Shown here: positions 4,339 through 57,940 of the stretch, in pieces
Position numbering within the stretch: position 1 is the stretch's first letter
Layout of the letters: each line of letters opens with the position of its first letter
Origin: Candidatus Parcubacteria bacterium
GTDB lineage: Bacteria > Patescibacteriota > Minisyncoccia > Minisyncoccales > JAGLUP01
Length of the DNA stretch: 64,000 nucleotides
Assembly (NCBI GenBank): GCA_023134715.1
Contig: JAGLUP010000003.1
Coordinates: 2,019-66,018 of the forward strand
Reading direction: 5' to 3'
Position numbers and translations under genes: made by a program
Notes under the pieces: generated by a model
What the model saw: only the letters and a program-made list of their open reading frames with translations
Databases searched by the model: none
Told to the model about the DNA's origin: nothing

Positions 4339-4361
4339 AAGAGCGAAAAGCTCTTTTTTTT
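4339..4361 (+). terminator. intrinsic terminator after trpC
   Basis: AGAGC-GAAAA-GCTCT followed by T8. Confidence 0.6.
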
Positions 4362-4420
4362 GAAGAAAAATTTGTTAAAATAAAAAAACAGCTGAATGCA
4401 GCTGAGAATAAAAAAAATGT

Positions 4421-4633: not shown

Positions 4634-4647
4634 AAATATTTTTTGGA

Positions 4648-14484: not shown

Positions 14485-14549
14485 ATAACTTTCTTGTTAA
14501 TAATTTTAAAAATGATATTATAAAATAATAATAAGTAATTATAAAAAAT

Positions 14550-15074
14550 ATGTTTAAAATTATTTTAGATTTTGTAAAAAAATATCTTCTTCCTCTCGTC
14601 ATTATTGTTTTAGTAATTTTTGTTTTGTTATTAATGAATCATATCTCTGTTTTAAACAAGGAAATAGCTTCTTTGTATCAAAAATCTTTACCCGAGACAA
14701 TTAAACCGCAGGAATCTGGAGCTGGAAATGTAGGAGAAATTATGGTTGAAGATGAAGAAACCGGCGAACAAGCTCCTTTAGTTTCTCCTATTATGCCTCC
14801 GGAAATTTTTAGCACTACTGGAATTATTATTGAAGTAAAAACAGACAGAGTAATTATCAAAGGCAAAGGCACTAATTTTGCCGATGGCAAAGCCAGGGTC
14901 TTAACAGTTGTTTTTACTAACGAGACAATAACTTTTGACAAAACCTCTACTTTTCGCCAAACAGGCGCCATAGGATTAAAGCAGCTTGAATCAGCAATGG
15001 AAGTTTTAATAGGAAGTTCAGAAAATATTCGGGGAAAAACTGAATTTAAAGCAAAAACACTTAAAATCCTTTAA
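14550..15074 (+). CDS. hypothetical membrane-anchored protein
   Basis: 174 aa with a single N-terminal TM helix. No recognised domain. Confidence 0.5.
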   Translation: MFKIILDFVKKYLLPLVIIVLVIFVLLLMNHISVLNKEIASLYQKSLPETIKPQESGAGNVGEIMVEDEETGEQAPLVSPIMPPEIFSTTGIIIEVKTDRVIIKGKGTNFADGKARVLTVVFTNETITFDKTSTFRQTGAIGLKQLESAMEVLIGSSENIRGKTEFKAKTLKIL

Positions 15075-15085
15075 TTATTAAATTC

Positions 15086-15146
15086 CAGTTTCTAAATTTT
15101 AAATTCTAAATATAATTTTGGATTTTGGATTTTGGATTTTGGATTT
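15086..15146 (+). repeat. heptamer arrays TTCTAAA/TTTTAAA/TTCTAAA then (TTTTGGA)x4
   Basis: (TTTTGGA)x4 at 15116..15143 is the reverse complement of the TCCAAAA array inside argS. The track ORF start at 15125 lies in this repeat and is probably spurious. Confidence 0.8.
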
Positions 15147-15154
15147 ATGTTATT

Positions 15155-16714: not shown

Positions 16715-16810
16715 GTAGAAAATAGCGTTAACTCTATTTTAAAATGGTTTGAAATGGCTTAAAATCAGAGGTTAAATCTAAAAGAAAAAATATGAAATTA
16801 GAATTTTATT

Positions 16811-18280
16811 ATGAAATGTTTTAAAAGAATAAATTATCTAATTATTTTTTTAATAGTTTTTGCGTTTTTTGCTGTGGGGATGGCAAATGCTGATGTTTCT
16901 GATAATGTTTCGGGTTGGGCTTGGTCAGAAAATATTGGCTGGATTAGCTTTAATTGCGTTAATGAGAACTGGTGCGCCACCTCAAGTTATGGTGTAGATA
17001 TTGATGAAACCACGGGCGTGTTTTTTGGTTATGCATGGGCTGGAGGTGGAGAAGATGCTGACGGCACGCCAAAACCAACTATTGGCTGGATAGCTTTTGC
17101 TGATTATGATGGAAGTGGCACAGAAGGTGATGCCGGAGATAATAATGCTGGTTTTCCTTGTTTTCCAAATTGCGAAGCTAAAATTGATACTATCACTAAT
17201 GAAGTTTCTGGATGGGCAAGAGCTTTGGCTCATGGCGACGGCTGGGACGGCTGGATAAAATTAAGAAAAGATCCTACTGATGCAGGCGCAGATTATGGAG
17301 TATCTTTAAATATAAGCTCAGGCGAATTAGAAGGGTTTGCCTGGGGAGGCGGAACGGTAGTAGATTCAATTAGTTTTAATCATCTTAATTGTGATCCAGA
17401 CAATGACGGATTTTCTAATGGAGTTGGAGCTTGTCCTATCGCTGGCACTCCTGTTTCAAATTATAAAGTAACAACTACTGCTTTTTTTGCGCTTCCTAAT
17501 TCACCGCCAACAATTACTGACATGAACGATCCTAATGGTTCTCAGATTTATTGTGATATTGGGTCCGGATTGAGTCATGTAAGCTTTGACTGGAAATATA
17601 ACGATGCTGACGGAGATGATGAGCTGAAATATGACCTTATAATTAATGATATAAATAATGTAAATGATACAAGTCCAGAAATTAATATCACTATAAACAG
17701 TCCCGCTTGTATTGACTTAGATCCTGGTTTAGCCATCTCTTGTATAAACACTTCAGGAGCTGTTATTGGGACTCAATTGGACTACAATAAAACTTATTAC
17801 TGGTGGGCAAAGGTTTATGATGACCAGGGCAATGATTCTGGCTGGGCGGCAGGATTATCTTTTGATACACCTGATCATCCTTGGCCTTGGCCTGATTTTA
17901 CTCACAGTCCTCAAAATCCAGGCGTTGGAGAAATAGTAATTTTTACCGATGAATCTCAATGTTGGACTACCGGCATCCCTGCCTCTGTTCCCTGTAAAAA
18001 TTTAGGCAGCACTTCTTATGGGTGGGATTTTGATTATAATTATAATCCAGGCATAGATTCTACAATAAAAGGAGATGCTACCACATCTTACCCAATTACT
18101 CAATCATATGATGTAAGATTGCATGTATCTGATGAATTAGGAGCTTGTATTGGCACAGGCGATAGTCCAGTTGGAGCGGAAATTCTTTTGCCTGAATGGA
18201 AGGAAACATCGCCTATTATTTTGATTAAAATTTTTTTAGCTGGAATTTTTAATTATTTCAATGAATTAATTTCTTTGTAG
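16811..18280 (+). CDS. secreted/anchored protein with GWAWSENIGWISFN-type repeats and a C-terminal PKD-like domain
   Basis: 489 aa. Signal/TM N-terminus, four copies of an aromatic GW-rich repeat, PKD-like segment (YGWDFD...YDVRLHVSD) and a hydrophobic C-terminus. Confidence 0.6.
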   Translation: MKCFKRINYLIIFLIVFAFFAVGMANADVSDNVSGWAWSENIGWISFNCVNENWCATSSYGVDIDETTGVFFGYAWAGGGEDADGTPKPTIGWIAFADYDGSGTEGDAGDNNAGFPCFPNCEAKIDTITNEVSGWARALAHGDGWDGWIKLRKDPTDAGADYGVSLNISSGELEGFAWGGGTVVDSISFNHLNCDPDNDGFSNGVGACPIAGTPVSNYKVTTTAFFALPNSPPTITDMNDPNGSQIYCDIGSGLSHVSFDWKYNDADGDDELKYDLIINDINNVNDTSPEINITINSPACIDLDPGLAISCINTSGAVIGTQLDYNKTYYWWAKVYDDQGNDSGWAAGLSFDTPDHPWPWPDFTHSPQNPGVGEIVIFTDESQCWTTGIPASVPCKNLGSTSYGWDFDYNYNPGIDSTIKGDATTSYPITQSYDVRLHVSDELGACIGTGDSPVGAEILLPEWKETSPIILIKIFLAGIFNYFNELISL

Positions 18281-44942: not shown

Positions 44943-45110
44943 AAAACTAAAAACTAAAAACGAAAAATGAAAAACGACAAAGAAAAATTAAAAATTTTTT
45001 AAAAATAATAAATAATAAATAATAAATAATAAATAATAAATAATAAATAATAAATTAAAAATTTTAGATTTTAGATTGTGATTTTACATTTTTCATTTTC
45101 TATTTTTAAT
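44942..45110. repeat. composite heptamer-repeat element: (AAAAACT-like)x5, (ATAATAA)x7 core, inverted (ATTTTAG-like)x7
   Basis: Left array 44942..44976, perfect (ATAATAA)7 at 45005..45053, right array 45061..45110. The arms are approximately reverse-complementary (for example CGAAAAATGAAAAACG vs CATTTTTCATTTTCT). Confidence 0.8.
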
Positions 45111-45124
45111 TTAGCGAAGCGTTT

Positions 45125-45361
45125 ATGCCTTTAGAAATCAAAAAAAAGGAAAGAGAGACATCTCAAAGTTTAATTCACCGTTTTTCACAAAGAATGCGAA
45201 GAAGCGGGATTTTGCGTCGGGCAAGAGAAATAAGGTTTAGGGAGCGCTCTTTGAGTCGTCAATTGAGAAAAAAAGCCGCTCTTAGAAGAGAAGAGCTTAA
45301 AAAAGAATACGAGAAACTGGAAAAACTTGGTAAGCCAAAAATTGGCAAATCAAGAAAGTAA
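45125..45361 (+). CDS. rpsU: ribosomal protein bS21
   Basis: 78 aa, very basic. SLIHRFSQRMRRSGILRRAREIRFRERS pattern typical of S21. Confidence 0.75.
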   Translation: MPLEIKKKERETSQSLIHRFSQRMRRSGILRRAREIRFRERSLSRQLRKKAALRREELKKEYEKLEKLGKPKIGKSRK

Positions 45362-45373
45362 TAAATTTATTAA

Positions 45374-46150
45374 ATGAGGAAAAATAACAAACTTCAAAAA
45401 GGTTTTACCCTCATTGAGTTATTGGTGGCCATTGCAATTATTGGCATTTTAGCGAATTTAATTTTAATTAATTTTAAAGATAGCAAAAAGAAAGCAGAGA
45501 TTGCTAAAGTTTTACAATGGAGCAATAGTAGTATTTATCATATGCTTGGAGCTAATTCTATGGGAGTTTGGAAATTTAATGGAAACCTCAACGATGCTTC
45601 TGGAAATAGAAATAGCTGCAGTATTACTGGGGACGCCGGTTATGTTTCCGGAGTAGCAGGACAGGGATTAGAATTTGACGGAACAGGAGATTATGTTAGT
45701 TGTCCAGATGATGATAGTTTAGATCCTATTAATGAGGCCACTATTGAAGCATGGATTTATTTGAGAAATTCTGGAGCTGGCAGCCAAATAATAGTTTCTA
45801 AAAGTGATTCCAATTACAGCGTTAAATATAATTCCGCGACCGGGAAAATAGATTTTGTTCTTTTTTGCAATACGATTTCCTCTGATTCAGCTATATCTTC
45901 AAATAGCTGGACTCATATTGCAGCTATAAAAGGGGCAAGCGATGAAATGAGATTATATATAAATGGAGAAAAGCAATTAGCTGTAAATAGCTGTTCGCAC
46001 CCTCTTCAATCTGCCACCCCTCTTTATATAGGAGGAGACGGAACTAATGACTTTGAGGGCATTATTGATGAAGTGAGAATTTATAGTGAGGGATTTTCAG
46101 AAAATATAGCTCGCGAACATTATTTAAAAGGCGAATTAACTCATAGATAA
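45374..46150 (+). CDS. type IV pilin-like protein with LamG-type lectin head (second copy of this architecture)
   Basis: KGFTLIELLVAIAIIGIL prepilin motif. GQGLEFDGTGDYV, WTHIAAIKG, FEGIIDEVRIYS. Confidence 0.8.
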   Translation: MRKNNKLQKGFTLIELLVAIAIIGILANLILINFKDSKKKAEIAKVLQWSNSSIYHMLGANSMGVWKFNGNLNDASGNRNSCSITGDAGYVSGVAGQGLEFDGTGDYVSCPDDDSLDPINEATIEAWIYLRNSGAGSQIIVSKSDSNYSVKYNSATGKIDFVLFCNTISSDSAISSNSWTHIAAIKGASDEMRLYINGEKQLAVNSCSHPLQSATPLYIGGDGTNDFEGIIDEVRIYSEGFSENIAREHYLKGELTHR

Positions 46151-46153
46151 ATT

Positions 46154-47377
46154 ATGCCGCAATCTCATATAATTACTGCCGTAGATATAGGAACTGACAG
46201 CATTAAAACTTTAGTAGTTAAGAAAAATAATGGAGATTCAGATCTTGAGGTTTTAGATATTATTTTTACTTCTTCTTTAGGTATGAGAAAAGGAGTTGTC
46301 GTTAACCCGGATAAGGTTTCTAAAAATCTTCAAAACTCAATAGCTGAAATCAGGGAACCACTTAGACAAAGCTTTAACGGTATTTATACAAATATTGGAG
46401 GCAACCATCTTTTTGTCACCTCAAGTCACGGATTAGTTTCTGTGTCCAGAGCTGACCAAAAGATTTCTCGAGAAGATATTAATCGAGTAATCCAAGCTGC
46501 TGAAGTGGTAAACTTGCCTCTTAATAATGAAATTTTAGAAACTTTTCCCAAGGAGTTTATTATAGACGGTCAGAAAGGAATAAAAGAACCATTAGGCATG
46601 AGAGGATTAAGATTAGAGGTTGAAATTTTAGCTCTTTGTGTTTTTTCTCCTTATTTAAAAAATTTAACTCAGGCGATTTTAGATTCTAATCTTCAAATAA
46701 ACGATGTAATTTTTTCTCCTTTAGCCGCGGCTCAAGCCGTGCTTACTCCTCAACAAAAAGAAGTTGGGGTGGCCTTAATAGATATCGGAGCGGGGGCTAC
46801 GAGCTTGGCAGTATTTGAGGAGGGAAATTTAATTCATACAGCTGTTTTTCCTTTAGGTTCTATTAATATTACTAATGATATTGCCATTGGCTTGCGGACT
46901 GAAATTGATATTGCCGAGAGAATAAAGAAAGAGTTTGGCTCTTGTTTGCTTCAAAAAAATAATAAAAAAGAAAAGATTAAAATTCCCCAATTAAAAGAGC
47001 CGTTGGTATTTTCCAAGAAAATGTTAGCTGAGATTATTGAAGCCAGGATTGAAGAAATTCTTGATTTAGTAAATAAAGATTTAAAAAAGATTTCTCGCCA
47101 GGGATTATTGCCGGCAGGAATAGTTTTAACCGGAGGAGGGGCGAAATTGCCTAAAATTGTTGAATTAACAAAAAAAGAATTAAAACTTCCTGTTAGGATC
47201 GGGATTCCCAAAGGAATTTCCGGCATAGAAGAAGATCCTACCTTAGCCACAGTTTGCGGGCTTGCTTTGAGAGGAGCTGAGTCAGACGATGACGGGCATT
47301 TTTCTGATATTGGGAAGGGAGCTGTTAAGGAGGTTATTGGTAGAATAAAAAAAATACTCAAAACCTTTATTCCTTAA
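46154..47377 (+). CDS. ftsA: cell division protein FtsA
   Basis: 407 aa. ITAVDIGTDSIK, IDIGAGATSLAVF, actin-like fold pattern, VLTGGGAKLP. Confidence 0.9.
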   Translation: MPQSHIITAVDIGTDSIKTLVVKKNNGDSDLEVLDIIFTSSLGMRKGVVVNPDKVSKNLQNSIAEIREPLRQSFNGIYTNIGGNHLFVTSSHGLVSVSRADQKISREDINRVIQAAEVVNLPLNNEILETFPKEFIIDGQKGIKEPLGMRGLRLEVEILALCVFSPYLKNLTQAILDSNLQINDVIFSPLAAAQAVLTPQQKEVGVALIDIGAGATSLAVFEEGNLIHTAVFPLGSINITNDIAIGLRTEIDIAERIKKEFGSCLLQKNNKKEKIKIPQLKEPLVFSKKMLAEIIEARIEEILDLVNKDLKKISRQGLLPAGIVLTGGGAKLPKIVELTKKELKLPVRIGIPKGISGIEEDPTLATVCGLALRGAESDDDGHFSDIGKGAVKEVIGRIKKILKTFIP

Positions 47378-47422
47378 GATAAAGGTCGTGTCATTTTGTA
47401 ATTAAAAGATATAAAATTTTAT

Positions 47423-47962
47423 ATGATTTGTCCAAATTGTAAAAAAGAGACCTTAAAAAAAATTACTTTTCATAAAAATAAAGTAGATATATGCAAAGAA
47501 TGCCATGGGATTTGGTTTGATAAAGATGAGTTAAGGAAAGCAAAGGACGAGAAAGACCAATACTTAAAGTGGTTAGATGTTGACCTTTGGAAAGAAAAAA
47601 AAGAATTTCAAGCTTCTTCTTCTCAAAAAGTATGTCCCCTATGTAAAAAGAATCTTTATGAGATAAAATACGGAAAATCTAATATCAAAATAGATATTTG
47701 TAATTCATGCAAGGGGGTTTGGCTTGATAAAGGAGAATTTAAAAAAATTATAATTTATTTGGAAAATATAGTAAATACTGAAACTTTATCTCAATATTTT
47801 AAAGATATGCTTGAAGAAGCAAAAGAGATTTTTACGGGACCGGAAGAGTTGTCTTCAGAAATCAAAGATTTTTTTATAGTCACGAAACTGCTTCAATATA
47901 GATTTTGCGTTCAATATCCAATAATTAATGATATAATTCTTAATCTCCCGTTTACTAAATAA
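47423..47962 (+). CDS. protein with two zf-TFIIB-type zinc ribbons
   Basis: 179 aa. CPNC...CKECHGIWFDKDEL and CPLC...CNSCKGVWLDKGEF. Confidence 0.6.
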   Translation: MICPNCKKETLKKITFHKNKVDICKECHGIWFDKDELRKAKDEKDQYLKWLDVDLWKEKKEFQASSSQKVCPLCKKNLYEIKYGKSNIKIDICNSCKGVWLDKGEFKKIIIYLENIVNTETLSQYFKDMLEEAKEIFTGPEELSSEIKDFFIVTKLLQYRFCVQYPIINDIILNLPFTK

Positions 47963-47984
47963 ATTATAATAAATTAAAAAAGTA

Positions 47985-48173
47985 ATGACAAATAATTTAG
48001 CGATAACAATATGTGATGCAGGATGGGCAAGCGGGTGTGGTCGAATGCATCCATGGTATAATAAAATAATATGTGCCATAGAATGTTTTCCTGAATATTT
48101 TTTATTAATTCCCATAATTATTGCAATAATCATAGTAGTTTTATATGTCGTCAGAAAGAAAAAGAATACTTAA
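47985..48173 (+). CDS. hypothetical 62-aa protein with C-terminal TM helix
   Basis: Track ORF only, no recognised motif. Its status as a real gene is uncertain. Confidence 0.25.
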   Translation: MTNNLAITICDAGWASGCGRMHPWYNKIICAIECFPEYFLLIPIIIAIIIVVLYVVRKKKNT

Positions 48174-48232
48174 AATTTTTATTCCTTAAGAAATTTGATT
48201 TTTATAGAAAAATTTGTTAAAATTAAAATAAT

Positions 48233-48478
48233 ATGAAGAAAATATTTCGGTACAATGTTATTTTCCGACCAGAACCAGAAGGCGGTTTTACAGTAATTGT
48301 TCCCAGCTTGCCTGGCTGTATTAGTTATGGAAAGGATTTGAAACAGGCAAAGGAAATGGCTATAGACGCGATTAAAGGATATATAGTTAGTTTAAAAAAA
48401 CATAAAGAGCCAGTTCCTACTGACGAGGAAGATTTTTTTACTTCAGTAGAAATTAAAAGAACTCCCGCTTATGCCTAA
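48233..48478 (+). CDS. hicB: HicB-family antitoxin (UPF0150)
   Basis: 81 aa. PEPEGGFTVIVPSLPGCISYGKDLKQAKEMA. Promoter TTGATT(48195)-N17-TAAAAT ends 9 nt before the ATG. Confidence 0.8.
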   Translation: MKKIFRYNVIFRPEPEGGFTVIVPSLPGCISYGKDLKQAKEMAIDAIKGYIVSLKKHKEPVPTDEEDFFTSVEIKRTPAYA

Positions 48479-48703
48479 ACTTCCCAATATTACTCCTAAA
48501 AATTAGTAAAAGTTTTAAAAGATTTTGGTTTCCAGATAGATCATACTACTGGAAGCCATTTTATTTTCTATAATTTTGAAAATAAAAAGAGAGCGGTAAT
48601 TCCCTATCACACTAAAGACCTGCCAAAAGGAACATTAATGAGCATTTTAAGAGAAGCAGGCATTAGCAAAAAAGAATTTGAAAAAGCAATAAAAAACAAG
48701 TAA
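48471..48703 (+). pseudogene. hicA: HicA-family toxin gene interrupted by a 1-nt frameshift in an A5 run
   Basis: Frame 1: MPKLPNITPKN-stop. Adding one A restores ...PKKLVKVLKDFGFQIDHTTGSHFIFYNFENKKRAVIPYHTKDLPKGTLMSILREAGISKKEF, a full HicA. Confidence 0.75.
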
Positions 48704-48704
48704 A

Positions 48705-48878
48705 ATGAAGTTAATAAAAAGAAATCCGAATGTGAATAACCAAACTCAATCTAAATTATTTTCATTTTTTAATAAACCAGTTTCTACTCACGCGGGAATC
48801 GCAATCATTATGGTTGCGTTTTCCGTTTTTGGAGTAAAGGATTTGATTTTTAGGGAAAAATTTGTTAAAGTAAAATAA
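48705..48878 (+). CDS. 57-aa ORF: duplicated 5' fragment of the 49362 membrane-protein gene reading through into the next cassette promoter
   Basis: MKLIKRNPNVNNQTQSKLFSFFNKPVSTHAGIAIIMVAFSVFGVKDLIFREKFVKVK. 48791..48823 is identical to 49421..49453. Confidence 0.6.
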   Translation: MKLIKRNPNVNNQTQSKLFSFFNKPVSTHAGIAIIMVAFSVFGVKDLIFREKFVKVK

Positions 48879-48882
48879 AAAT

Positions 48883-49116
48883 ATGATAATATTTACTCAG
48901 CATGCTTTATTGAAATTAGAGCAGAGAAATATTCCCAAATTACTGGTTGTGAAAACATTAGAATTCCCTGATTATGAATTTGATAGTTATGGTGAAAGAG
49001 GAATTGTTTATAAAAAATTTAGCAAATTATATCTGAAAGTGATTTATATGAAAGAAGGGGGGAATATTATCGTTATTACCCAATATTGGGAAGAAAAACC
49101 AAGATTAATAAAATAA
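48883..49116 (+). CDS. DUF4258-family putative toxin
   Basis: 77 aa. MIIFTQHALLKLEQRNI...IIVITQYW pattern. Promoter TTGATT(48843)-N17-TAAAGT. Confidence 0.65.
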   Translation: MIIFTQHALLKLEQRNIPKLLVVKTLEFPDYEFDSYGERGIVYKKFSKLYLKVIYMKEGGNIIVITQYWEEKPRLIK

Positions 49117-49136
49117 TTTAAAGGAATATAAAAAAT

Positions 49137-49346
49137 ATGGAAATTACTTATGACTCAAAAGCTGACGCAATGAATATTACTTTTAAGAGAGGCAAAGTTG
49201 ATAAAACTTTGGAAGTCGCTCCAGAGATAATTTTTGATTTAGACAAAAATGGCGAACCTTTATATTTAGAAATTCTTGGAGCCAGCAAGAAAATAGGCAA
49301 GCAAAAAGTAAATGAAATTTTAATGAGAAATCTTGTGTCCGCTTAA
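49137..49346 (+). CDS. DUF2283-family putative antitoxin
   Basis: 69 aa. ITYDSKADAMNITF...DLDKNGEPLYLEILGASK. Confidence 0.65.
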   Translation: MEITYDSKADAMNITFKRGKVDKTLEVAPEIIFDLDKNGEPLYLEILGASKKIGKQKVNEILMRNLVSA

Positions 49347-49361
49347 ATTAGTTTTAAAGAT

Positions 49362-50582
49362 ATGAACATCCGAAATCAATCTAATTTACTTTCATTTTTC
49401 AATAAACGACTCTCTGCTCGCGCGGGAATCGCAATCATTATGGTTGCGTTTTCTATTTGCGCGGGAATTCTGGTTTGGCAAGCGGAATTATTGAAACAGG
49501 AAATGAGGGCATTAGAAATGGTTCCAGAATCAAAAGAAAAAACCAAGATATACTTAACCATAGACGCTCTTGAAAATGCTAAATATTATGTTGTTGCGTA
49601 TGGTGAAACAGTTTTGCTTAAAGATGGTTATTATCGAGAGGAACATCCTGGAATGGCATCTGGATTGGAAGTTGCTATTTATAAAAATAAGATAGTTTTT
49701 GGCGATTTGAATAATGACGGAAAAAAGGATGCCGCTGTGATTTTACGTAGCAGTGGAGGAGGAAGCGGTGATTTTCGCGAGCTGGCTATTATGATAAATG
49801 AAGACGGAAAACCCAATTATTTTATTTCAAAAGAATTAGGGGATAGAGTAATAATAGATTCTATAACCATACAATCAGGAATAATTGTTCTTGATATGAT
49901 TGTTCACGGTCCTAGCGATGGTTTGTGTTGCCCTACATTAAAAAAGATAGGTAGATACAAATTATCTAAAGATCAATTATTAGAGATGACAGAAGACGAA
50001 ACTATGAATTGGAAAACTTATATAAATGAAGAATATGAGTTTGAGATAAAATATCCGTCCAAGTATGAGATTTCTAAAATGACCGCAACAGATGTTGCTC
50101 CTGCAATTAAAGCAGATTCGTATGCTCAAATAATCTTTAGAGATTTAACAGGATTTTTTACAAAAGAAGAAATAGACCAGAAAAAAATCAATTCAGAAAA
50201 AATAATAGTAGGGGGGATAGAAGCATTTCGTTCTTCTTTAGGAGGAAATATGGATAGCGGAATAGAATTTTTTGTTTCATTTTACGATTATCCGAAAAAA
50301 GGAATGATTTTTAATATCCTTTTTTCTACTCATCAGCCCGAAAGAGAAGAAGAAATAAATACTTTTAATCAAATGCTTTCTACTTTTAAGTTTATTGAAA
50401 AAATTCCTGAAATATTGAAATCTCCACTAATTGGTGCTCCTGAAGAAATCGAAAAGGCTAAATTAGAATTTTGTCGAGAGGTTTGTAAGGCCTGGCTAGG
50501 AAAAATGGTGGAAGATTCAAAATGTGAATTGCAAACGGGTGAAGTTTATTCTTGCGAAGAGCTGATTGAAAAATTACGTTAA
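49362..50582 (+). CDS. membrane-anchored extracytoplasmic protein of unknown function (full-length copy of the duplicated 5' end)
   Basis: 406 aa. N-terminal signal anchor AGIAIIMVAFSICAGILVW, a GDLNNDGKKDAAVIL (FG-GAP/VCBS-like) segment and WKTYINEEYEFEIKYP. Confidence 0.6.
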   Translation: MNIRNQSNLLSFFNKRLSARAGIAIIMVAFSICAGILVWQAELLKQEMRALEMVPESKEKTKIYLTIDALENAKYYVVAYGETVLLKDGYYREEHPGMASGLEVAIYKNKIVFGDLNNDGKKDAAVILRSSGGGSGDFRELAIMINEDGKPNYFISKELGDRVIIDSITIQSGIIVLDMIVHGPSDGLCCPTLKKIGRYKLSKDQLLEMTEDETMNWKTYINEEYEFEIKYPSKYEISKMTATDVAPAIKADSYAQIIFRDLTGFFTKEEIDQKKINSEKIIVGGIEAFRSSLGGNMDSGIEFFVSFYDYPKKGMIFNILFSTHQPEREEEINTFNQMLSTFKFIEKIPEILKSPLIGAPEEIEKAKLEFCREVCKAWLGKMVEDSKCELQTGEVYSCEELIEKLR

Positions 50583-50712
50583 TAAGAACCTCCTTTTAAA
50601 ACTTTACTTTTTTGGCTACTTTTCAGTTTTTGGAATGAAGAAAATTTGACAAAGTTTTTGGAAAGGGTTAAAATTAAAGTAAGGAATGAAAAATAAGTAA
50701 GATTTAAATTTT

Positions 50713-50952
50713 ATGACTTACTCAACAACAATTACTAAAAAAGGACAAATTACTATCCCTAAAGAAATTAGGGAAATTTTGAGGTTGAAAGAAGGAGAAA
50801 GGATTTTTTTGGAAGTTGAAAAGAAGAAAAAGGAAATAAGAATTAAGTCAGAGCCAAGCATTTTTGAATTAGCAGGCAAGTTTAAGCCCAAAAAAGTAGA
50901 AAACGCTGTGAAGCTTCGGGAAAAAATGGCAAAAATGTATAAGCCCCGATAA
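50713..50952 (+). CDS. vapB: AbrB/SpoVT-fold antitoxin (VapB-like)
   Basis: 79 aa. ITKKGQITIPKEIREILRLKEGERIFLEV. Promoter TTGACA(50646)-N17-TAAAAT. Confidence 0.8.
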   Translation: MTYSTTITKKGQITIPKEIREILRLKEGERIFLEVEKKKKEIRIKSEPSIFELAGKFKPKKVENAVKLREKMAKMYKPR

Positions 50953-50957
50953 TTTTT

Positions 50958-51386
50958 ATGGAATATTTTATTGATACTAATATTTTTTTGAGGATTTTAG
51001 CCAAAGAAGATGAAAAGAGCTTTAGAGAGTGTTATTCTTTTTTAAAATTAGTGGAAATAAAACAAATCAAGGCAGTTACTTCTCCCTTAGTTTTAGCAGA
51101 AATAGATTGGGTTTTAGAGAATTTTTATAAATATAAGAAAGCAGAAGCAGTTAAGGCATTAAAAAGTATTTCAAAGCTGAGAGGACTAAAGATAATTAGT
51201 GATGTAAATATTTTTTTAGCAGTAGAGATTTATAAAAATCATTCTATCAAATTTATTGACGCTCTTATCGCTTCTAATTCTAAAATTATAAAAAAAGAGA
51301 TAATGATTGTTTCTTATGACAAGGATTTTGATAAAATAAAAGTAATCAGAAAAGAGCCCAGAGAACTAATTAAAAAGATAAAATAA
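50958..51386 (+). CDS. vapC: PIN-domain toxin (VapC-like)
   Basis: 142 aa. YFIDTNIFLRIL start, later acidic residues (AEIDW, FIDAL, YDKDFD). Confidence 0.8.
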   Translation: MEYFIDTNIFLRILAKEDEKSFRECYSFLKLVEIKQIKAVTSPLVLAEIDWVLENFYKYKKAEAVKALKSISKLRGLKIISDVNIFLAVEIYKNHSIKFIDALIASNSKIIKKEIMIVSYDKDFDKIKVIRKEPRELIKKIK

Positions 51387-51388
51387 TT

Positions 51389-51565
51389 ATGGATAGTCAA
51401 ACCCAATCTAATTTATCTTTATTTTTTAACAAACGAATTTCTACTCTTTTAGGATTCGCAATCATTATGATTGCGATTTTAATTTGTGTAGGAATTTTGT
51501 CTAAGCAATATTTACAAATGGCGAGAGCAGAAATCAAAATGCTTGAAATAAAGGTGTCGGAATAA
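51389..51565 (+). CDS. 58-aa ORF: truncated paralogue of the 49362 gene 5' end
   Basis: MDSQTQSNLSLFFNKRISTLLGFAIIMIAILICVGILSKQYLQMARAEIKMLEIKVSE aligns with residues 1-55 of the 49362 product, then stops. Confidence 0.55.
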   Translation: MDSQTQSNLSLFFNKRISTLLGFAIIMIAILICVGILSKQYLQMARAEIKMLEIKVSE

Positions 51566-51675
51566 GCAATGCCAGAAACAAAATTTAATGATTTTTTAGA
51601 TTTAATTTAAAGAGAGCCGGGAAAAGCTCTTTTTTGTTGATTTAAGGTTTTTAATTTGGTAGAATTAGATAAAGT

Positions 51676-51891
51676 ATGAAAAATTATAAAATTATAAAAA
51701 AGAATAAATTGCAAAGACGCAGAGAACTCACGCGAGCTTTTCTTTTGTATAATTTTTTGAAACTTTCTCGTCGTGAAAAAGAAAAATATTTCAATAAACA
51801 GGTCCCGGAAGTAATATTGCGGACAATGAAGCTTGAGGGCGAGAAAATAAGTCGTCAAGATATTAAAAAATTATTAAAGTCCAGTTTTTGA
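51676..51891 (+). CDS. VbhA-like Fic antitoxin carrying the (S/T)xxxE(G/N) inhibitory motif
   Basis: 71 aa. TMKLEG matches the inhibitory-helix motif. Sits immediately upstream of fic. Promoter TTGATT(51637)-N17-TAGAAT ends 10 nt before the ATG. Confidence 0.6.
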   Translation: MKNYKIIKKNKLQRRRELTRAFLLYNFLKLSRREKEKYFNKQVPEVILRTMKLEGEKISRQDIKKLLKSSF

Positions 51892-51892
51892 A

Positions 51893-52537
51893 ATGTCAAA
51901 AAAGAAAGATTCTACAAAACCAAAAGGCGCTACGAGTTTTAAAGAAACTAAATTTGGAATTATTCCTCGTTCTAAATTAGTGAAATTAGAAGCTGATGGA
52001 GTAGGAAGAGGTTTAAAGTTTATAAAAGTTCAGGCAAAACAAGATTTTTTAATTTCTCCTGAATTGATTTTACTTATTCATAAAAAATCTTTTGCATGGA
52101 TTTTTCCCAAATGGTCTGGAAAATTTAGAAAAATTGAGGTAGAAGTTTCTGGCTATCAGCCGCCAGATTTTTACAAAGTGCCAGTTTTAATAAAACAATT
52201 TTGTGATGATTTAAACAAACGTTTAAAACATATTCCTCCCAAAACAACAGTAGATAAATATCTTGAAGAAGTTGTAAGTTTGACCGCTTGGGCACAGCAT
52301 CGTTTTGTCTGGATTCATCCTTTTAACGATTATAACGGCAGAGCAGCTCGGCTTTTAACCAATCTTATTTTTCTAAAATTGGGACTTCCGCTTTTAGAAA
52401 TTAAGGTTGAAACCAGAAAAGACAGAAACCAGTATATTAAAGCAATGCAGCTTGCTGATAAACATGACTATTTATTATTAGAGGAGATTATATCATCAGC
52501 GTTGCAAGAAGCGCTAAAGAAAGGTCTTTTGGAGTAA
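51893..52537 (+). CDS. fic: Fic-domain protein (putative AMPylating toxin)
   Basis: 214 aa. HPFNDYNGRAAR, near-canonical HxFx(D/E)GNGRxxR with Tyr in place of the first Gly. Confidence 0.8.
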   Translation: MSKKKDSTKPKGATSFKETKFGIIPRSKLVKLEADGVGRGLKFIKVQAKQDFLISPELILLIHKKSFAWIFPKWSGKFRKIEVEVSGYQPPDFYKVPVLIKQFCDDLNKRLKHIPPKTTVDKYLEEVVSLTAWAQHRFVWIHPFNDYNGRAARLLTNLIFLKLGLPLLEIKVETRKDRNQYIKAMQLADKHDYLLLEEIISSALQEALKKGLLE

Positions 52538-52556
52538 AATAAATTAAATAGATATT

Positions 52557-53492
52557 ATGAAGAAAAATGTAAAAATTAAAGTAATAGGAGTGGGCGGTTC
52601 TGGCTGTAACGCCATAACCCGGATGATGAAATGCCATATTCAAGGCGTTGATTTAATTGCCTTAAATACTGACGCTCAAGACCTTAAAAATACCAATGCT
52701 CATCAAAAGCTTCAAATCGGAAAAGAATCAACAAAGGGATTGGGAGCGGGAATGAATCCAGAAATCGGCAAACAAGCTGCTGAAGAGCAAAAACAAGAAA
52801 TTCAAGACATATTAAAAGATTCAGATATGGTGTTTATTGCCTATGGAGCAGGCGGGGGCACTGGCACGGGAGCAGGGCCGGTTGTGGCTGATATTGCTAA
52901 AAAATTGGGAATTTTGACCATTGCCGTGGTTACCAAACCGTTTTCCTTTGAGGGCGCTTATCGAATGAAAGCCGCTGAGAAAGGAATAGATGATTTGAAA
53001 AGCAAGGTTGACACTTTATTGGTCATTCCAAATAATAAGTTGCTTAAGTTAATTAATGAAGAAACATCTCTTTTGCAGAGTTTTTGGATTTGTGATGAGG
53101 TCTTAAGGCAGGCGGTTCAAGGAATTTCTGACTTGATTGTTTTGCCGGGCATTATTAATGTTGATTTTGCTGACCTTAAGGCGATTATGAGAAATTCTGG
53201 ACAGGCATTATTCGGAATGGGTAAGTCAAAAGGCGAGAAAAGAGCTGTAGAAGCAGCTGTAAAAGCAATCAGCTCTCCGTTGGTTGATTTTTCTATTGAA
53301 GGAGCAAAAGGAGTTCTATTTAATGTAAGCGGCGGAGCAGATCTTTCTTTGACAGAAGTAGATGAAATAGCAAAATTGATTACTCAACGCATTCATTCAA
53401 AAGCCAAAGTAATTTTTGGAGCGGTTCAAGACAGAAGATTAGGAAAAGGAGAGATAAGAGTAACAGTCATCGCGACAGGGTTCGTCCAGTAG
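52557..53492 (+). CDS. ftsZ: cell division protein FtsZ (short, without long C-terminal tail)
   Basis: 311 aa. [22 protein letters not shown] tubulin signature, NTDAQ. Confidence 0.95.
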
Positions 53493-53584
53493 TGGAAATT
53501 TTTAATTATCCACAGTTTTGTTAAATTTGACCGCGCTTGACCAAAGAGGTAAACTATAATTACCTCTTTAATTTTTATTTCATT

Positions 53585-55696
53585 ATGATAAATAAAATTA
53601 CAAACAAAATTACAAAAGTAATAAAAAGAGACGGTTTAATAGCTGATTTTAAACAGGAAAAAATTGCAGATGCGATTTTAAAAGCGCTCACCGCTTCTAA
53701 GCAAGGCAACGGGAAAACATCAAAAGATCTTGCTGCAAAGGTAGTTGAAATTTTAAATAGAAGATTCAGAAAAAAAGAAATTCCAGATGTTGAGCAAATT
53801 CAAGACATTATTGAAGAAGTTTTAATTTTAGAGAATTTAGTAGAAACATCCAAGGCGTATATTTTATATAGAGAGCAAAGAAGGAAAATCAGGGAAACGA
53901 CAGGAACTTTAGATGAAACAGTTGAAATGGTGGACAAATATATTGGCGAACTTGACTGGGAGGTTAAAGAAAATGCCAATATGGCTTATTCTTTGCAGGG
54001 CTTGAATCATTACTGCACTTCAGCTATTACTAAAAAATATTGGTTAAATAAAGTTTATCCAAAAGAAATAAGAGAAGCGGTTGAAGACGGTGATTTTCAT
54101 TTGCATAATTTAGACAGCTTAAGCACTTACTGTTGCGGATGGGATTTATACGACCTTTTATTAAAAGGATTTGGAGGCGTTAAAGGAAAAGTAGAGTCAA
54201 AACCAGCAAAGCATTTTGGAACAGCTTTAGGCCAATTAGTTAATTTTTTCTATACGCTTCAGGGCGAGTCCGCTGGCGCTCAAGCTGTTTCCTCTTTTGA
54301 CACTTTGCTTGCTCCTTTTATAAGATACGATAATTTAAATTATCATCAGGTAAAGCAAGCAATTCAGGAATTTTTATTTAATTGCGCTATACCTACCAGA
54401 GTAGGATTTCAAAATCCTTTTACAAATCTTACATTAGATATCACGCCATCTCCCTCTCTTGCCAAACAGCCGATTATTATTGGCGGTATGCCGCAAAAAG
54501 AAATTTACGGGGAATTTCAAGATGAAATGAATATGCTTAACAAGGCGTTTTATGAGTGTATGATGGAGGGCGATGCTAAGGGCAGGCCTTTTACTTTTCC
54601 AATTCCAACCATTAATATTACTGAAGATTTCGCTTGGGACGAACCGACATTAGAACCAATGTGGGAAGCAACAGCGAAATACGGTGTTAATTATTTTGCT
54701 AATTTTATTCATTCGGATATGAAGCCAGAAGATGTAAGGTCAATGTGCTGTCGGCTTCGCTTGGATAATAAAGAACTTTATAAGAGAGGAGGAGGATTAT
54801 TTGGAAGCAATCCCTTGACTGGCAGCATCGGCGTAGTAACGATTGATATGCCTCGTATTGCTTATTTGTCCAAAACCAAAAAAGAATTTTTCCAGCGATT
54901 AGTAAAAATTATGGATTTAGCAAAAGAGAGTTTAGAAATAAAAAGGAAAGCGTTGGAAAACTTTATGGAAAAAGGGCTTTATCCTTACTCTAAATATTAT
55001 TTATCAGGGATTAAAAAAATGAGAGGAGATTATTGGGGCAACCATTTTTCAACTATTGGGCTTGTTGGGCTGAATGAGTGTTTGCTTAATTTCATCGGAG
55101 AAGACATTGGCTCTAAAAAAGGAAGAAAGTTTGGGCTTGAAATTTTAGATTTTATGCGCGATGTATTGGCAAAATATCAAAAAGAAACTGACAATCTTTA
55201 TAATTTAGAAGCAACGCCGGCTGAGGCGACCGCTTATCGTTTGGCGAAAAAAGATAGAGAAAAATATCCAGATATTATTACCGCTGGCACAAAAAAAGAG
55301 CCATATTATACAAATTCAAGCCAGCTTCCGGTTAATTATACTGAAGATCTTTTTGAGGCATTAGAACTCCAAGACGAAATTCAGTGTAAATATACTGGCG
55401 GTACCACTTTGCATCTCTTTTTAGGAGAAAAGATTTCTGATGTTCGGACTGTTAAAAATTTAATAAAGAAAATTTTTGAAAAGTTTCATTTGCCTTATAT
55501 TACGCTTACTCCTACTTTTTCAATTTGCCCTGTCCACGGTTATATTTCAGGAGAACATTTTAATTGTCCAAGATGCGCCATAAAACAGCCATGCGAGGTT
55601 TATTCTCGGGTAGTGGGATATCTTAGGCCTGTTAATCAGTGGAATGAAGGTAAGCAAGTTGAATATCACGAAAGAAAAACATTTAAAGTCAAATGA
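53585..55696 (+). CDS. nrdD: anaerobic ribonucleoside-triphosphate reductase with ATP-cone
   Basis: Start moved to ATG MINKITNK. ATP-cone (VIKRDGLIADF), CCRLRLD, C-terminal CPVHG...CPRC and RVVGYLRP glycyl-radical context. Confidence 0.9.
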   Translation: MINKITNKITKVIKRDGLIADFKQEKIADAILKALTASKQGNGKTSKDLAAKVVEILNRRFRKKEIPDVEQIQDIIEEVLILENLVETSKAYILYREQRRKIRETTGTLDETVEMVDKYIGELDWEVKENANMAYSLQGLNHYCTSAITKKYWLNKVYPKEIREAVEDGDFHLHNLDSLSTYCCGWDLYDLLLKGFGGVKGKVESKPAKHFGTALGQLVNFFYTLQGESAGAQAVSSFDTLLAPFIRYDNLNYHQVKQAIQEFLFNCAIPTRVGFQNPFTNLTLDITPSPSLAKQPIIIGGMPQKEIYGEFQDEMNMLNKAFYECMMEGDAKGRPFTFPIPTINITEDFAWDEPTLEPMWEATAKYGVNYFANFIHSDMKPEDVRSMCCRLRLDNKELYKRGGGLFGSNPLTGSIGVVTIDMPRIAYLSKTKKEFFQRLVKIMDLAKESLEIKRKALENFMEKGLYPYSKYYLSGIKKMRGDYWGNHFSTIGLVGLNECLLNFIGEDIGSKKGRKFGLEILDFMRDVLAKYQKETDNLYNLEATPAEATAYRLAKKDREKYPDIITAGTKKEPYYTNSSQLPVNYTEDLFEALELQDEIQCKYTGGTTLHLFLGEKISDVRTVKNLIKKIFEKFHLPYITLTPTFSICPVHGYISGEHFNCPRCAIKQPCEVYSRVVGYLRPVNQWNEGKQVEYHERKTFKVK

Positions 55697-56394
55697 TTTT
55701 AGGCGGTTTTCAAAAAACTACTCTAATTGATTATCCGGGCAAAATAGCTTGCACGGTTTTTTTAACTGGCTGCAATTTTCGCTGTCCTTTTTGTTATTCA
55801 ATTGAGCTTGTTTTGCCGGAGAAAATAAAAGACCAGCCAAAAATTGCAGAAGATATTTTTTTTGATTTTTTAAAACAGCGAAAAGAATTATTAGATGGTG
55901 TGGTTTTATGCGGAGGAGAGCCGACAATTCATAAAGATTTGCCGCAATTTTGTAAAAAAATTAAAAAATTAGGATATTTAATAAAACTTGATACTAACGG
56001 CTCTAATCCAGAAATGCTATCAGAATTAATTGATAAAAAATTAATTAACTATGTAGCGATGGATATAAAAGCTCCGCTTAAAAATAAATATGAAAAGATG
56101 GCTGGAGTAAAAGTTAATATGGAAGATATAAATAAAAGCGTTGATATTTTACGGCAGGGGAAAATTGATTTTGAATTTAGAACAACAGTTGCCCCTGGTC
56201 TTGAAAAACAAGATATTTTAGAAATTGCCGATTGGATAGGGGGGGAAAAGGTAAAATATTTTCTTCAAGAATTTAATACTCAAAAACAAGTTTTAAATCC
56301 AGAAATTTTAAAACTTCCAATTCTAAAAAAAGAAGAGATTGAAAAAATAATTGCCGAAATAAAACCCAAATTCCAAACCTGCCAGCTAAGATAA
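55693..56394 (+). CDS. nrdG: anaerobic RNR activating protein (radical SAM)
   Basis: 233 aa. GCNFRCPFCY radical-SAM cluster motif. Overlaps the nrdD stop. Confidence 0.85.
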   Translation: MILGGFQKTTLIDYPGKIACTVFLTGCNFRCPFCYSIELVLPEKIKDQPKIAEDIFFDFLKQRKELLDGVVLCGGEPTIHKDLPQFCKKIKKLGYLIKLDTNGSNPEMLSELIDKKLINYVAMDIKAPLKNKYEKMAGVKVNMEDINKSVDILRQGKIDFEFRTTVAPGLEKQDILEIADWIGGEKVKYFLQEFNTQKQVLNPEILKLPILKKEEIEKIIAEIKPKFQTCQLR

Positions 56395-56461
56395 ATGTTT
56401 AATCCACGGGATTAAACATTTTTTTGTTTTATAAATTTTAGAGATTGGTTATAATAGAATA

Positions 56462-57940
56462 ATGACAGTTTCTAAAATTTTTTTGTATTTTTGTTTGTCT
56501 TTTATTTTAGGAATTTTTGTAAATTCCTTTTTTAATATCTCTTTAATCTTAACGCTCATTGTTTTAATTTTGGGAATTTTATTGATTTCAGTTTTTTGGC
56601 GTCGTAAAGATATAGTAGTTATTGGTTTTTGTTTAATTTTTCTAGTTCTGGGAATTTCGCGGCACCAAATGGTTGAACCATCAGTAGTAGATTATCAAGA
56701 ACAAAAAGTTATTTTAACAGGAGTAGTTATAAAAGAGCCAGACATTAGAGAGGATAATATTAAATTAACAATAAGCAGTAAACAAATAGACGGGAAGGTT
56801 TTGGTGACCGTGGAGCGGTATCCAGAATATCAATATGGAGATGAGCTAAAAATTACCGGGAGATTAAAACCGCCAGCAGAGTTTCCAGATTTTAATTATA
56901 AAGATTATTTGGCTAAAGATGGAATTTATTCAGTAATGTATAAGCCAAAAATTGAGTTGATAAATAGAAAAAATTACCGAGGACAGGCCTCGGTAATTTA
57001 TGGGAAGATTTTGGGTTTTAAGGATAAGTTAAGAAAAAATATTGAACAAAATTTTTCTCCGCCGCAATCTTCAATTTTAGGAGCTATAATTTTAGGAGAT
57101 AAACGCCAAATTTCTCAGCAATGGCAGGAAAAGCTTAATATCGCGGGCGTAAGGCATATTACTTGCGTATCTGGAATGCACATTGTTATTCTTTCCGGGA
57201 TTTTAATGTGGCTGGGAATTAGATTAGGTTTATACCGAGGGCAGGCGTTTTATTTTGCTCTAATTTTAATTTTTCTTTTTATCATTATGATAGGCGCTCC
57301 AGCTTCAGCGATTAGAGCCGGCATTATGGGCGGGCTTTTTCTTTTAGGCCAGAAATTAGGGCGGCTTTCAACCTCTTCCAGGGCTATAGTTTTTGCTGGC
57401 GCTATAATGCTATTTCATAACCCTTTGCTTTTAAAATCAGATGTTGGGTTTCAACTTTCTTTTTTAGCGGTTTTGGGGATAATTTATTTAATGCCTGTTT
57501 TCCAAAAGTTGCTTGCCCGCCTAAATTTTTCTTCAGAAAATTTTGGCGGGTTAAGAGATATTATTTCTATGACAATAGCCGCGCAGATTTTTACCCTGCC
57601 TCTTCTGATTTTTAACTTTGGATATATATCTTTAGTTTCATTGATTGCTAATGTTTTAATTGTTCCGATTGTTTCTTTTATTATGATTTCTGGGTTTATT
57701 TTTGTTATTTCAGGAATAATTTATCAGCCCCTTGCCTGGATTTTAGCTTTGCCTTGCTGGATGTTATTAACTTATCTAATAAAAATAGTAGATTTTCTTT
57801 CGCAGATTCCTTTTGCTACTTTGAGCTTAGAAGTTTCTTGGATTTGGCTAATAATTTTTTATTTAATTTTGGCTTATACAACACGGCAATTAACTAAAAA
57901 AGATAAATATGATATTATGGGTCAATGGCAAGAATATTAA
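56462..57940 (+). CDS. comEC: ComEC/Rec2-family DNA uptake channel (no metallo-beta-lactamase domain)
   Basis: 492 aa polytopic protein. DUF4131-like OB region followed by a competence-domain pattern (AGVRHITCVSGMHI). Confidence 0.8.
   Translation: MTVSKIFLYFCLSFILGIFVNSFFNISLILTLIVLILGILLISVFWRRKDIVVIGFCLIFLVLGISRHQMVEPSVVDYQEQKVILTGVVIKEPDIREDNIKLTISSKQIDGKVLVTVERYPEYQYGDELKITGRLKPPAEFPDFNYKDYLAKDGIYSVMYKPKIELINRKNYRGQASVIYGKILGFKDKLRKNIEQNFSPPQSSILGAIILGDKRQISQQWQEKLNIAGVRHITCVSGMHIVILSGILMWLGIRLGLYRGQAFYFALILIFLFIIMIGAPASAIRAGIMGGLFLLGQKLGRLSTSSRAIVFAGAIMLFHNPLLLKSDVGFQLSFLAVLGIIYLMPVFQKLLARLNFSSENFGGLRDIISMTIAAQIFTLPLLIFNFGYISLVSLIANVLIVPIVSFIMISGFIFVISGIIYQPLAWILALPCWMLLTYLIKIVDFLSQIPFATLSLEVSWIWLIIFYLILAYTTRQLTKKDKYDIMGQWQEY

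Follow-up and report, generated by a model that had tools for sequence, protein, structure and literature searches.

Toxin-antitoxin pairs and duplicated gene ends in a gene-gain hotspot between ftsA and ftsZ of a Parcubacteria lineage

The 64-kb stretch of DNA considered here, referred to throughout as the window, is part of a 391-kb scaffold from an uncultured bacterium (34% G+C) of the Parcubacteria, in the Candidate Phyla Radiation (CPR). Between ftsA and ftsZ it contains an islet of 5.2 kb (47378-52556) which holds four toxin-antitoxin (TA) gene pairs together with one intact and several fragmentary copies of a surface-protein gene, called mem below. In about 30 related genomes, which were fetched with FtsA as probe, ftsA leads directly to ftsZ across a gap of 0-90 nt, usually followed by nrdD, and the whole of 47378-52556 is therefore specific to the lineage of the window. 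Three genomes of this lineage were found in the collections searched, namely the window itself and two relatives, L004 and L042, and the content of TA pairs differs among all three. The islet is a lineage-specific hotspot of gene gain between ftsA and ftsZ, and its anatomy, as well as its empty and occupied states, can be followed at the level of individual bases.

The start of the gene for the intact 406-aa surface protein is found three times in the islet, in copies that we call A, B and C (Table 1). Copy A matches copy B at 85% over 99 nt (48730-48828 against 49360-49458, E 2e-25) and copy C matches B at 73% over 121 nt (51388-51508, E 1e-18). An initial annotation, made from the letters of the window alone, had already pointed out that the 5' end of this gene recurs, and the alignments place all three copies far beyond chance. 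The short ORFs also begin close behind hicA and vapC as it had stated, at distances of 1 nt and 2 nt instead of the 2 and 3 nt given. Copies A and B share an exact 33-mer (48791-48823 and 49421-49453), and identity between them goes from 78% (nt 1-59) to 100% (nt 60-92) and then to 37% beyond, in agreement with the earlier description of a perfect run after which homology ends abruptly. If 13 mismatches were scattered randomly over 92 nt, an uninterrupted match of 33 nt or more would arise with a probability of 0.025. The spacing from A to B is 630 nt, which is the size that had been estimated for a DUF4258/DUF2283 unit.

The core motif formed by this 33-mer occurs three times in the 64 kb, against 0.01 occurrences expected, always in direct orientation, and its hairpin gives folding z-scores of -3.5 to -6.2. 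The palindrome is not found in the L004 orthologue and is therefore not required by the protein. Of the four TA modules only the DUF4258/DUF2283 unit (48824-49453) has a core on either side; a scan of the 64 kb for the core motif found none flanking hicBA or orf71/Fic, and the core at vapBC matches at 25 of 33 positions. An attL/attR-like arrangement, as proposed earlier, is seen at the DUF4258/DUF2283 unit and not at hicBA, vapBC or Fic. An independent Logan assembly of the same sequencing run has contigs identical to 45092-48820 and 49424-57180, each of which ends 30 nt into the 33-mer, as expected of a k=31 graph, which branches there. Around the core of copy B (49419-49470) the 10-mer GCGCGGGAAT is directly repeated on either side of the hairpin (at 49419 and 49457), which lengthens the predicted DNA stem.

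The sequence that follows the break in copy A proved informative about the nature of the repeats. This stretch (48820-48837, TTTCCGTTTTTGGAGTAA) aligns with the last codons and stop of the L004 mem gene (..STFRFLE*), as does 50603-50638, and both align equally with the end of a family member in another genome, L047 (..STFRFLE*). It follows that in copy A the first ~92 nt of the gene run straight into its last five codons, at a junction marked by the pentamer TTTTC, which is present at both positions (~92 and the 3' end) in intact genes. In copy B the canonical family end, ..QMLSTFKFIE, is reached at about 50366-50399 and is followed by an extension of about 60 aa. It had been noticed previously that the post-break sequence of A resembles the left edge of the vapBC module, and the likeness was found at 50621-50638. 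The region 50598..50640 had been taken for a degraded 5' copy of the gene; alignment to the L004 and L047 ends makes it a 3' stub. What had been called a left-end motif of the cassettes is likewise the 3' terminus of the same gene family, so that the units are bounded by the remains of whole gene copies. A further relic, absent from the earlier description, is the 3' end of ftsA, which lies beyond the Zn-ribbon gene and the 62-aa open reading frame (ORF), next to the Zn-ribbon insert. Its position in the middle of the array implies that at least one piece once directly followed an ftsA gene. The mem 3' stubs, like this second end of ftsA, would be scars no different in kind from the truncated copies. 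The 12-mer TTTTGGAGTAAA at the stop of the Fic gene (52527-52538) is identical in the mem 3' stub after copy A (48827-48838); this is within chance, and was rejected as a meaningful link.

Comparison with the two relatives clarified which parts of the islet are additions. L004, the closest relative, whose FtsA is 79% identical to that of the window, has the order ftsA, mem, terminator/promoter, an MNT/HEPN (nucleotidyltransferase/HEPN) pair and ftsZ. Its mem gene starts 2 nt past the ftsA stop, is 61% identical to the 406-aa protein over the first 56 residues and ends ..NQMLSTFRFLE-stop. L042 is a 1.8-kb contig of a close relative from another sample, with 92% nucleotide identity in ftsZ and 96% in the Zn-ribbon gene. 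In it the Zn-ribbon gene is followed after 18 nt by a 58-aa ORF, the orthologue of copy C, and then by a terminator, the promoter known from the window and ftsZ; none of the four TA pairs is on its 1.8 kb. Against L042 the window has an insert of 3.4 kb, ending exactly at the ATG of copy C, and another of 0.87 kb (orf71 and Fic) that separates the ftsZ ATG from the promoter of that gene. The site behind this promoter (window 51637-51665, L004 11925-11955, L042 505-535) holds orf71/Fic in the window and MNT/HEPN in L004 and is empty in L042, and this promoter-proximal site before the essential ftsZ is a precise site of gain. These two pairs, Fic in the window and MNT/HEPN in L004, were gained at the locus without gene-start repeats. 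With L004 as outgroup, parsimony would make both the 3.4-kb block and the Fic pair gains. The earlier suggestion that TA pairs have been inserted is thereby supported relative to related genomes; the precise empty sites that it implied are not what L042 offers, which is without the entire 3.4-kb block and not without a single unit.

The copies themselves have had different fates. Copy C, as the 58-aa ORF C58, differs from its L042 orthologue of the same length by 9 synonymous and 8 non-synonymous changes (ratio of non-synonymous to synonymous substitution rates, dN/dS, 0.20; binomial P 0.003), and it is under purifying selection as a conserved small gene. The 57-aa ORF of copy A (A57) is a dead gene fragment, while the very similar C58 is a conserved gene for a small membrane protein. 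Copy C had been interpreted as a surrogate gene start borne by a cassette, and this does not hold for an ORF that on the 1.8-kb contig of L042 stands alone without adjoining TA genes, an outcome which the initial annotation itself had named as refuting its proposal. Nor does the array have the order expected of serial displacement, as also proposed, given that the intact gene stands mid-array and the most downstream copy is truncated. The copies are 73-80% identical among themselves and 75-80% identical to the L004 orthologue. Since they are as diverged from each other as from L004, duplication after the split from L042 (ftsZ 92%) is excluded. Divergence from L042 is a mosaic, with a dS of 0.04 for the Zn-ribbon gene (96%; 47716-47986) against 0.36 for ftsZ (92%; 52554-53840), which indicates recent exchange of the Zn-ribbon segment between lineages.

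Table 1. Features of the islet between ftsA and ftsZ and of its borders (positions in the window)
Feature	Position	Strand	Evidence and remarks
ftsA, left border of the islet	46154..47377	+	Pfam table; 77% nucleotide identity to L004 ftsA
Zn-ribbon protein, 179 aa	47423..47962	+	96% nucleotide identity to L042; not in L004; dS 0.04 (ftsZ 0.36)
Cys-rich membrane ORF, 62 aa	47985..48173	+	L042 homology stops at its ATG
Relic of the ftsA 3' end, ~12 codons with the stop (RKRILKIFIP*)	48155..48192	+	86% over 36 nt to 47344-47379, E 5e-5; also L004 11184-11221
Promoter block P1 (TTGATT, 17 nt, TGT-TAAAAT)	48193..48232	+	Ends 9 nt before the hicB ATG
hicB antitoxin	48233..48478	+	PF15919, E 1.5e-8
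hicA toxin, frameshift-split in the A5 run 48498-48502	48471..48703	+	PF07927, E 3.8e-18 (48500-48700); identical in the Logan contig
Copy A, a mem-family gene start of 31 codons	48732..48823	+	Ancestral ATG now GTG; within the 57-aa ORF 48705-48878
33-nt core, copy A, hairpin CGCAATCAT/ATGGTTGCG	48791..48823	+	Imperfect palindrome if read as 11-7-11
Relic of a mem-family 3' end (..FLE-stop)	48820..48837	+	Alignment; joined to copy A at the TTTTC microhomology
Promoter block P2	48841..48882	+	83% identical to P1, E 2.5e-8
DUF4258 protein, RelE/ParE-superfamily toxin candidate	48883..49116	+	PF14076, E 4.5e-5, 24.1 bits, just under the Pfam cutoff of 25 bits
DUF2283 protein, antitoxin candidate	49137..49346	+	PF10049, E 2.8e-13
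Copy B, intact 406-aa mem-family surface protein	49362..50582	+	
33-nt core, copy B	49421..49453	+	
Second relic of a mem-family 3' end, NFTFLATFQFLE-stop	50603..50638	+	50618-50673 matches L004 11851-11905
Promoter P3 (TTGACA, 17 nt, TAAAAT), before vapB	50646..50674	+	
vapB, AbrB/MazE-type antitoxin	50713..50952	+	PF04014, E 5.6e-11
vapC, PIN toxin	50958..51386	+	PF01850, E 8.3e-13
Copy C (C58), 58-aa truncated mem-type ORF	51389..51565	+	Equal length in L042; dN/dS 0.20
Near-perfect palindrome TCGCAATCAT-T-ATGATTGCGA inside copy C	51456..51476	+	
Terminator hairpin and ftsZ promoter P4 (TTGATT, 17 nt, TGG-TAGAAT)	51609..51665	+	Kept in L004 and L042
orf71, FicA-like antitoxin candidate	51676..51891	+	No Pfam match; TMKLEG fits the [ST]xxxE[GN] inhibitory motif; not in L042
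Fic-domain protein, toxin candidate	51893..52537	+	PF02661, E 1.3e-14
ftsZ, right border of the islet	52557..53492	+	

All four pairs consist of adjoining small genes with recognised toxin and antitoxin domains, or in the case of orf71 a recognised motif, as type II TA systems do, and their activity as such is predicted on these grounds. Pfam supported the annotation of HicB, HicA, DUF4258, DUF2283, MazE/AbrB-type VapB, PIN VapC and Fic, with DUF4258 just below cutoff; DUF4258 is listed in the RelE/ParE superfamily (PMC11980606). The frameshift in hicA is either that of a real pseudogene or a read error common to both assemblies. The active-site motif of the Fic protein reads HPFNDYNGRAAR, with Y where G is usual. 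Each pair sits right behind an extended -10 promoter, with the start codon within about 10 nt for three of the four and vapB about 39 nt past the -10 box. Because each pair also stops 1-19 nt ahead of the next start codon, the pairs are probably co-transcribed with the genes downstream of them and ultimately with ftsZ. The blocks P1 and P2 precede unrelated genes (hicB and the DUF4258 gene). There are three good copies of the P1/P2 block in the 64 kb, all beside TA pairs, and so small a number led us to reject it as a general promoter consensus; its likeness to the ftsZ start (77%, E 0.11) is within chance. A second hicBA pair is encoded on the minus strand at 4421-4908, between a trpC-like gene and ileS, and a P1/P2-like block on the plus strand (4346-4388) faces the 3' end of that second hicA. 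An Rfam scan of 47-53 kb gave no match, and no tRNA target was found within the islet.

Analysis of related DUF4258/DUF2283 pairs helped to determine whether the ends of the unit are fixed. Fifty homologues of the DUF4258 protein, with 58-87% identity, are mostly from CPR genomes, and in the contexts fetched DUF4258 is always paired with DUF2283. The pair lies between two NUDIX genes in L050, between pfpI and rplJ in L058 and L059, and by nusA-linked genes in L052, and the promoters and downstream sequences in these four genomes are unrelated to those of the window. Only L047, the nearest (79% nucleotide identity), shares short flanks, consisting of an 11-nt -35 region, an 18-nt spacer and a weakly similar leader-type start; a mem-family gene is present there too, and another DUF2283 gene, unrelated to the first, is followed by degenerate mem-type starts. 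Cassettes with fixed ends, as the initial annotation had them, are hard to reconcile with five other contexts in which homologous pairs are without the same left end, promoter and gene start, apart from the short flanks in L047. In L052, as in L053, a direct repeat of 221 nt with 72% identity (2424-2644 and 3712-3931) brackets a 145-aa gene and the DUF4258/DUF2283 pair. This repeat is the 3' part of the neighbouring gene for a 166-aa membrane protein, and a terminator has been doubled with it (3152-3179 and 3977-4004). Gene-end duplications beside inserted TA pairs thus recur in CPR genomes without a common core site. An apparent duplicate of the rplJ 5' end in L058 was set aside, as it flanks a run of N.

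Taken together, we are inclined to think, with modest confidence, that the islet consists of stacked partial copies of a single ancestral arrangement made up of the ftsA end, mem, a short promoter region, a TA pair and ftsZ, produced by homology-anchored recombination and deletions. DNA would have been imported from the versions of this same locus in diverged relatives, one side being joined by homology and the other by an illegitimate or short-homology joint, in the manner of homology-facilitated illegitimate recombination (HFIR; defined in PMC3240628) or of a Campbell-type event. Events of this kind would duplicate the end of the anchor gene beside each insert. In copy A an internal deletion or joining at TTTTC might have put ~92 nt of the 5' end against the last five codons; copy C is truncated and yet retained as a small membrane-protein gene, and the 33-mer is best understood as a patch of gene conversion or crossover that reached the limit of A/B homology. 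HFIR is marked by one homologous anchor and one microhomology joint, and what is seen here is the TTTTC at the junction of A, the duplication of the ftsA 3' end and the 221-nt analogue in L052. The route is suggested by the anatomy of the locus, and several observations weigh against it. The microhomology at the junction is just 5 nt. Neither a donor genome nor a recombination intermediate was seen, the lineage is known from only three genomes in the collections searched, and between gain in the window and loss in L042 parsimony alone decides. The 83% identity of P1 and P2 in front of unrelated TA families looks cassette-like. In addition, a perfect run of 33 nt that ends at the homology break (P ~0.025) is not predicted by random deletion or an illegitimate joint, and needs an extra step of conversion or crossover.

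Under a different explanation, the 630-bp unit of mem 3' stub, leaderless promoter, DUF4258/DUF2283 pair and mem-type start is a minimal mobile TA cassette, free of any recombinase gene and bounded by the 33-nt hairpin cores. Such a cassette could cross over at the core within the conserved 5' region of a multi-copy CPR mem family, restoring the gene start, through a trans-acting Xer-like tyrosine recombinase or through RecA acting on a circular form. The identical 33-mer at both junctions, the break exactly at its right edge and the 78%/100%/37% mosaic are all expected of this; so is the combination of an identical core with a diverged gene start on the left, which is the footprint of an att-type or Campbell-type event. 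The core folds as a hairpin (z -3.5 to -6.2) and allows a reading as an imperfect palindrome of 11-7-11 design. A crossover from core to core would leave an intact gene and free a circle of 630 bp, which would hold a mini-gene designed like copy A. The pair in L047 shares the 18-nt spacer, the ATG and a weakly similar leader-type start, the second, unrelated DUF2283 gene there is again followed by such a start, and recombinase-less TA modules have a precedent in the 768-bp 'add' dif module (PMC6449649). However, with three cores in 64 kb only one TA module in four is bracketed, the palindrome is missing from the L004 orthologue, and the left end derives from the 3' end of the gene family itself. 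The flanks of homologous pairs in L050, L052, L058 and L059 bear no relation to those of the unit, and searches of viral, plasmid and phage collections returned neither core nor unit. No recombinase gene was found in the window, and C58 is resident in L042, which shows no TA genes. We therefore regard a mobile cassette as unlikely.

It is also conceivable that nothing was imported, and that an old tandem array of mem, promoter and TA pair, formed in place before the lineage of the window parted from L004 and L042, decayed differently in each lineage, with A and C suffering internal deletions, and vanished entirely from L004 and L042. The regular units, with spacings of 648 and 630 nt and homologous P1/P2 blocks and 5' ends, the survival in L004 of a single unit built alike (mem, promoter, TA) and the high divergence between copies would all accord with an old duplication. 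We consider it doubtful nonetheless, although slightly easier to credit than the cassette, for it requires independent clean losses in L004 and L042 as well as absence from about 30 other relatives, and successive TA pairs belong to unrelated families, each of which would still need a separate gain. The ftsA 3' relic in mid-array and the mosaic of dS point instead to exchange between lineages. A joining of strain variants with different TA pairs through the 33-mer during assembly is highly improbable. The scaffold is metagenome-assembled, a k=31 graph branches at the 33-mer where the Logan contigs end, and the Logan gene set lacks the DUF4258 and DUF2283 proteins. With differences of 15-27%, however, copies A, B and C form separate graph nodes; the 33-mer is the sole ambiguous node, and its alternative resolution is a 630-bp circle, not a second strain. 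The junction of A with the stub has only 5 nt in common with any other sequence and so is no k-mer chimera, and the Logan gene set seems to omit contigs below about 1 kb. The idea that absence from this set marks an element of a sub-population was rejected for the same reason, being better explained by short contigs without gene calls.

Several known systems resemble the islet in part. Integrative islands and prophages target the ends of genes (tRNA, tmRNA and protein genes) and carry a surrogate copy of the part that they displace; they encode an integrase and are kilobases long. Like them the islet has an identical core at both junctions and a diverged gene-end duplicate on one side, at one pair of junctions only, that of DUF4258/DUF2283. 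It differs in that the unit is 630 bp, no recombinase was found in the window, and its other end is formed by a stub from the same family of genes. The initial annotation had seen no recombinase either, and a Pfam scan of ORFs and the precomputed gene tables of the window show neither an integrase nor a transposase, several ORFs being without a Pfam match. Chromosomal superintegrons are serial arrays of short cassettes, many of them TA pairs. The islet shares the serial short units and the abundance of TA pairs; its units, unlike integron cassettes, are separated by gene fragments. The hairpin in the coding region apart, no inverted repeats bound the cassettes, and no attC, IntI or attI was found in the window. 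An integron array was rejected on the lack of attC and IntI in the window and on each unit having its own promoter.

The dif modules known from plasmids have 28-bp XerC/XerD sites of 11-6-11 design in alternating inverse orientation, and include the 768-bp TA 'add' module (PMC6449649, PMC13141974). Those of Acinetobacter are, like the units of the islet, small, serial and recombinase-less, often with one TA pair and with short palindromic sites, and dif modules are the nearest precedent for recombinase-less TA modules. In the islet, by contrast, the direct repeats fall within a coding region, show no match to the dif consensus and surround one module only. There is no Xer gene in the 64 kb, and no site in the window matches dif of E. 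coli or B. subtilis at 20 or more of 28 positions. The core is best read as 11-1/3-11 (9-10 of 11 complementary) or 11-7-11 (8 of 11). An assignment to dif modules was rejected, since neither the 11-6-11 design nor the dif match nor the inverse orientation is seen.

Two further comparisons come closer. Scars of HFIR or Campbell-type events after natural transformation (PMC3240628) have, as the islet does, one homologous and one illegitimate joint and a duplicated end of the anchor gene, represented here by the ftsA relic, the mem stubs and the L052 repeat. Competence genes are present as well, the window encoding ComEC, type IV pilin-like proteins and RecO. The islet adds a perfect patch of 33 nt at the break and a stacking of several events at one site, and here the process would be read from anatomy only. 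HFIR was originally reported in Acinetobacter and Streptococcus. Chromosomal TA-rich islets or hotspots have variable accessory content between conserved core genes, with TA families that differ by strain. The islet is likewise fixed in position between conserved genes and holds different TA families in different strains; what sets it apart is its place inside a division gene cluster, right behind the promoter of ftsZ, and the streamlined CPR genome around it. Among the known systems, recombination scars in a chromosomal hotspot fit best, which would make this a further example of a known phenomenon. In short, it looks like recombination scarring in a gene-gain hotspot and not like a new type of self-inserting cassette.

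The locus gives a base-level picture of how accessory genes are gained in the streamlined genome of an uncultured CPR bacterium. TA pairs lodge right behind promoters within the ftsA-ftsZ division cluster, and the flanking genes bear duplicated stubs as scars. Some caution is also called for in annotation, as similar short 'hypothetical' ORFs can be a dead fragment (A57) or a conserved gene (C58). If the cassette were real after all, it would be a chromosomal, gene-targeting counterpart of the plasmid dif modules.

An exhaustive HMMER profile search assigned the N-terminus of the 406-aa protein (M406) to a broad CPR family of membrane-anchored proteins, which is unnamed and has weak similarity to PsbP_2. 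Its features are an N-terminal anchor (MxNQNQSK..LNKGISTP.GILIIV..GGILAWQY), a central ETADWKTYRNEEYGFEIKYP motif and a C-terminal ..LSTFRFLE. M406 has the anchor as MxNQxQSK..FxNK..ST..G..II, a WKTYxNEEYxFEIKYP motif and ..LSTFxFxE at the C-terminus, followed by its 60-aa tail; A and C hold the N-terminal part of the family only. In the window the family is confined to this locus. The N-terminal profile had only four matches among 5.8 billion proteins, which makes the lineage too rare to be tested at population level; in a metagenome scan it found only L041, the same organism as L004. The L004 mem orthologue has an in-frame TAG at 11455-11457, seen also in L041 (1703-1705) and hence in two assemblies, so that it is a pseudogene or a split gene. 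An apparent 60-aa stand-alone relative (P0127, in L060) proved to be an artefact of a scaffold gap. L060 does have a degenerate canonical 3' end, QLLSTF*FLE*, after the real stop of an intact mem-family gene.

Some minor observations were made beside these. Between fusA and tuf in L060 (3198-4885), the mem-family gene is preceded by a pair of overlapping ORFs that carry an HUH-like motif, HFHFYLLL, and may be a remnant of IS200/RAYT type. L047 has long imperfect palindromes of GTTGGCGAT / TCGCCAAC repeats at 2355-2460, after its mem-family gene, and at about 2905-2960, after a 31-aa mem-type relic, and these may be a repeated extragenic element. Elsewhere in the window an ORF of PF05635, the family of proteins of 23S rRNA intervening sequences, stands alone among unrelated genes at 11741-12121. 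In L004, nrdD matches in three pieces over 13969-17997, with gaps of about 1.4 kb and 0.5 kb, which suggests insertions of intein or intron type.

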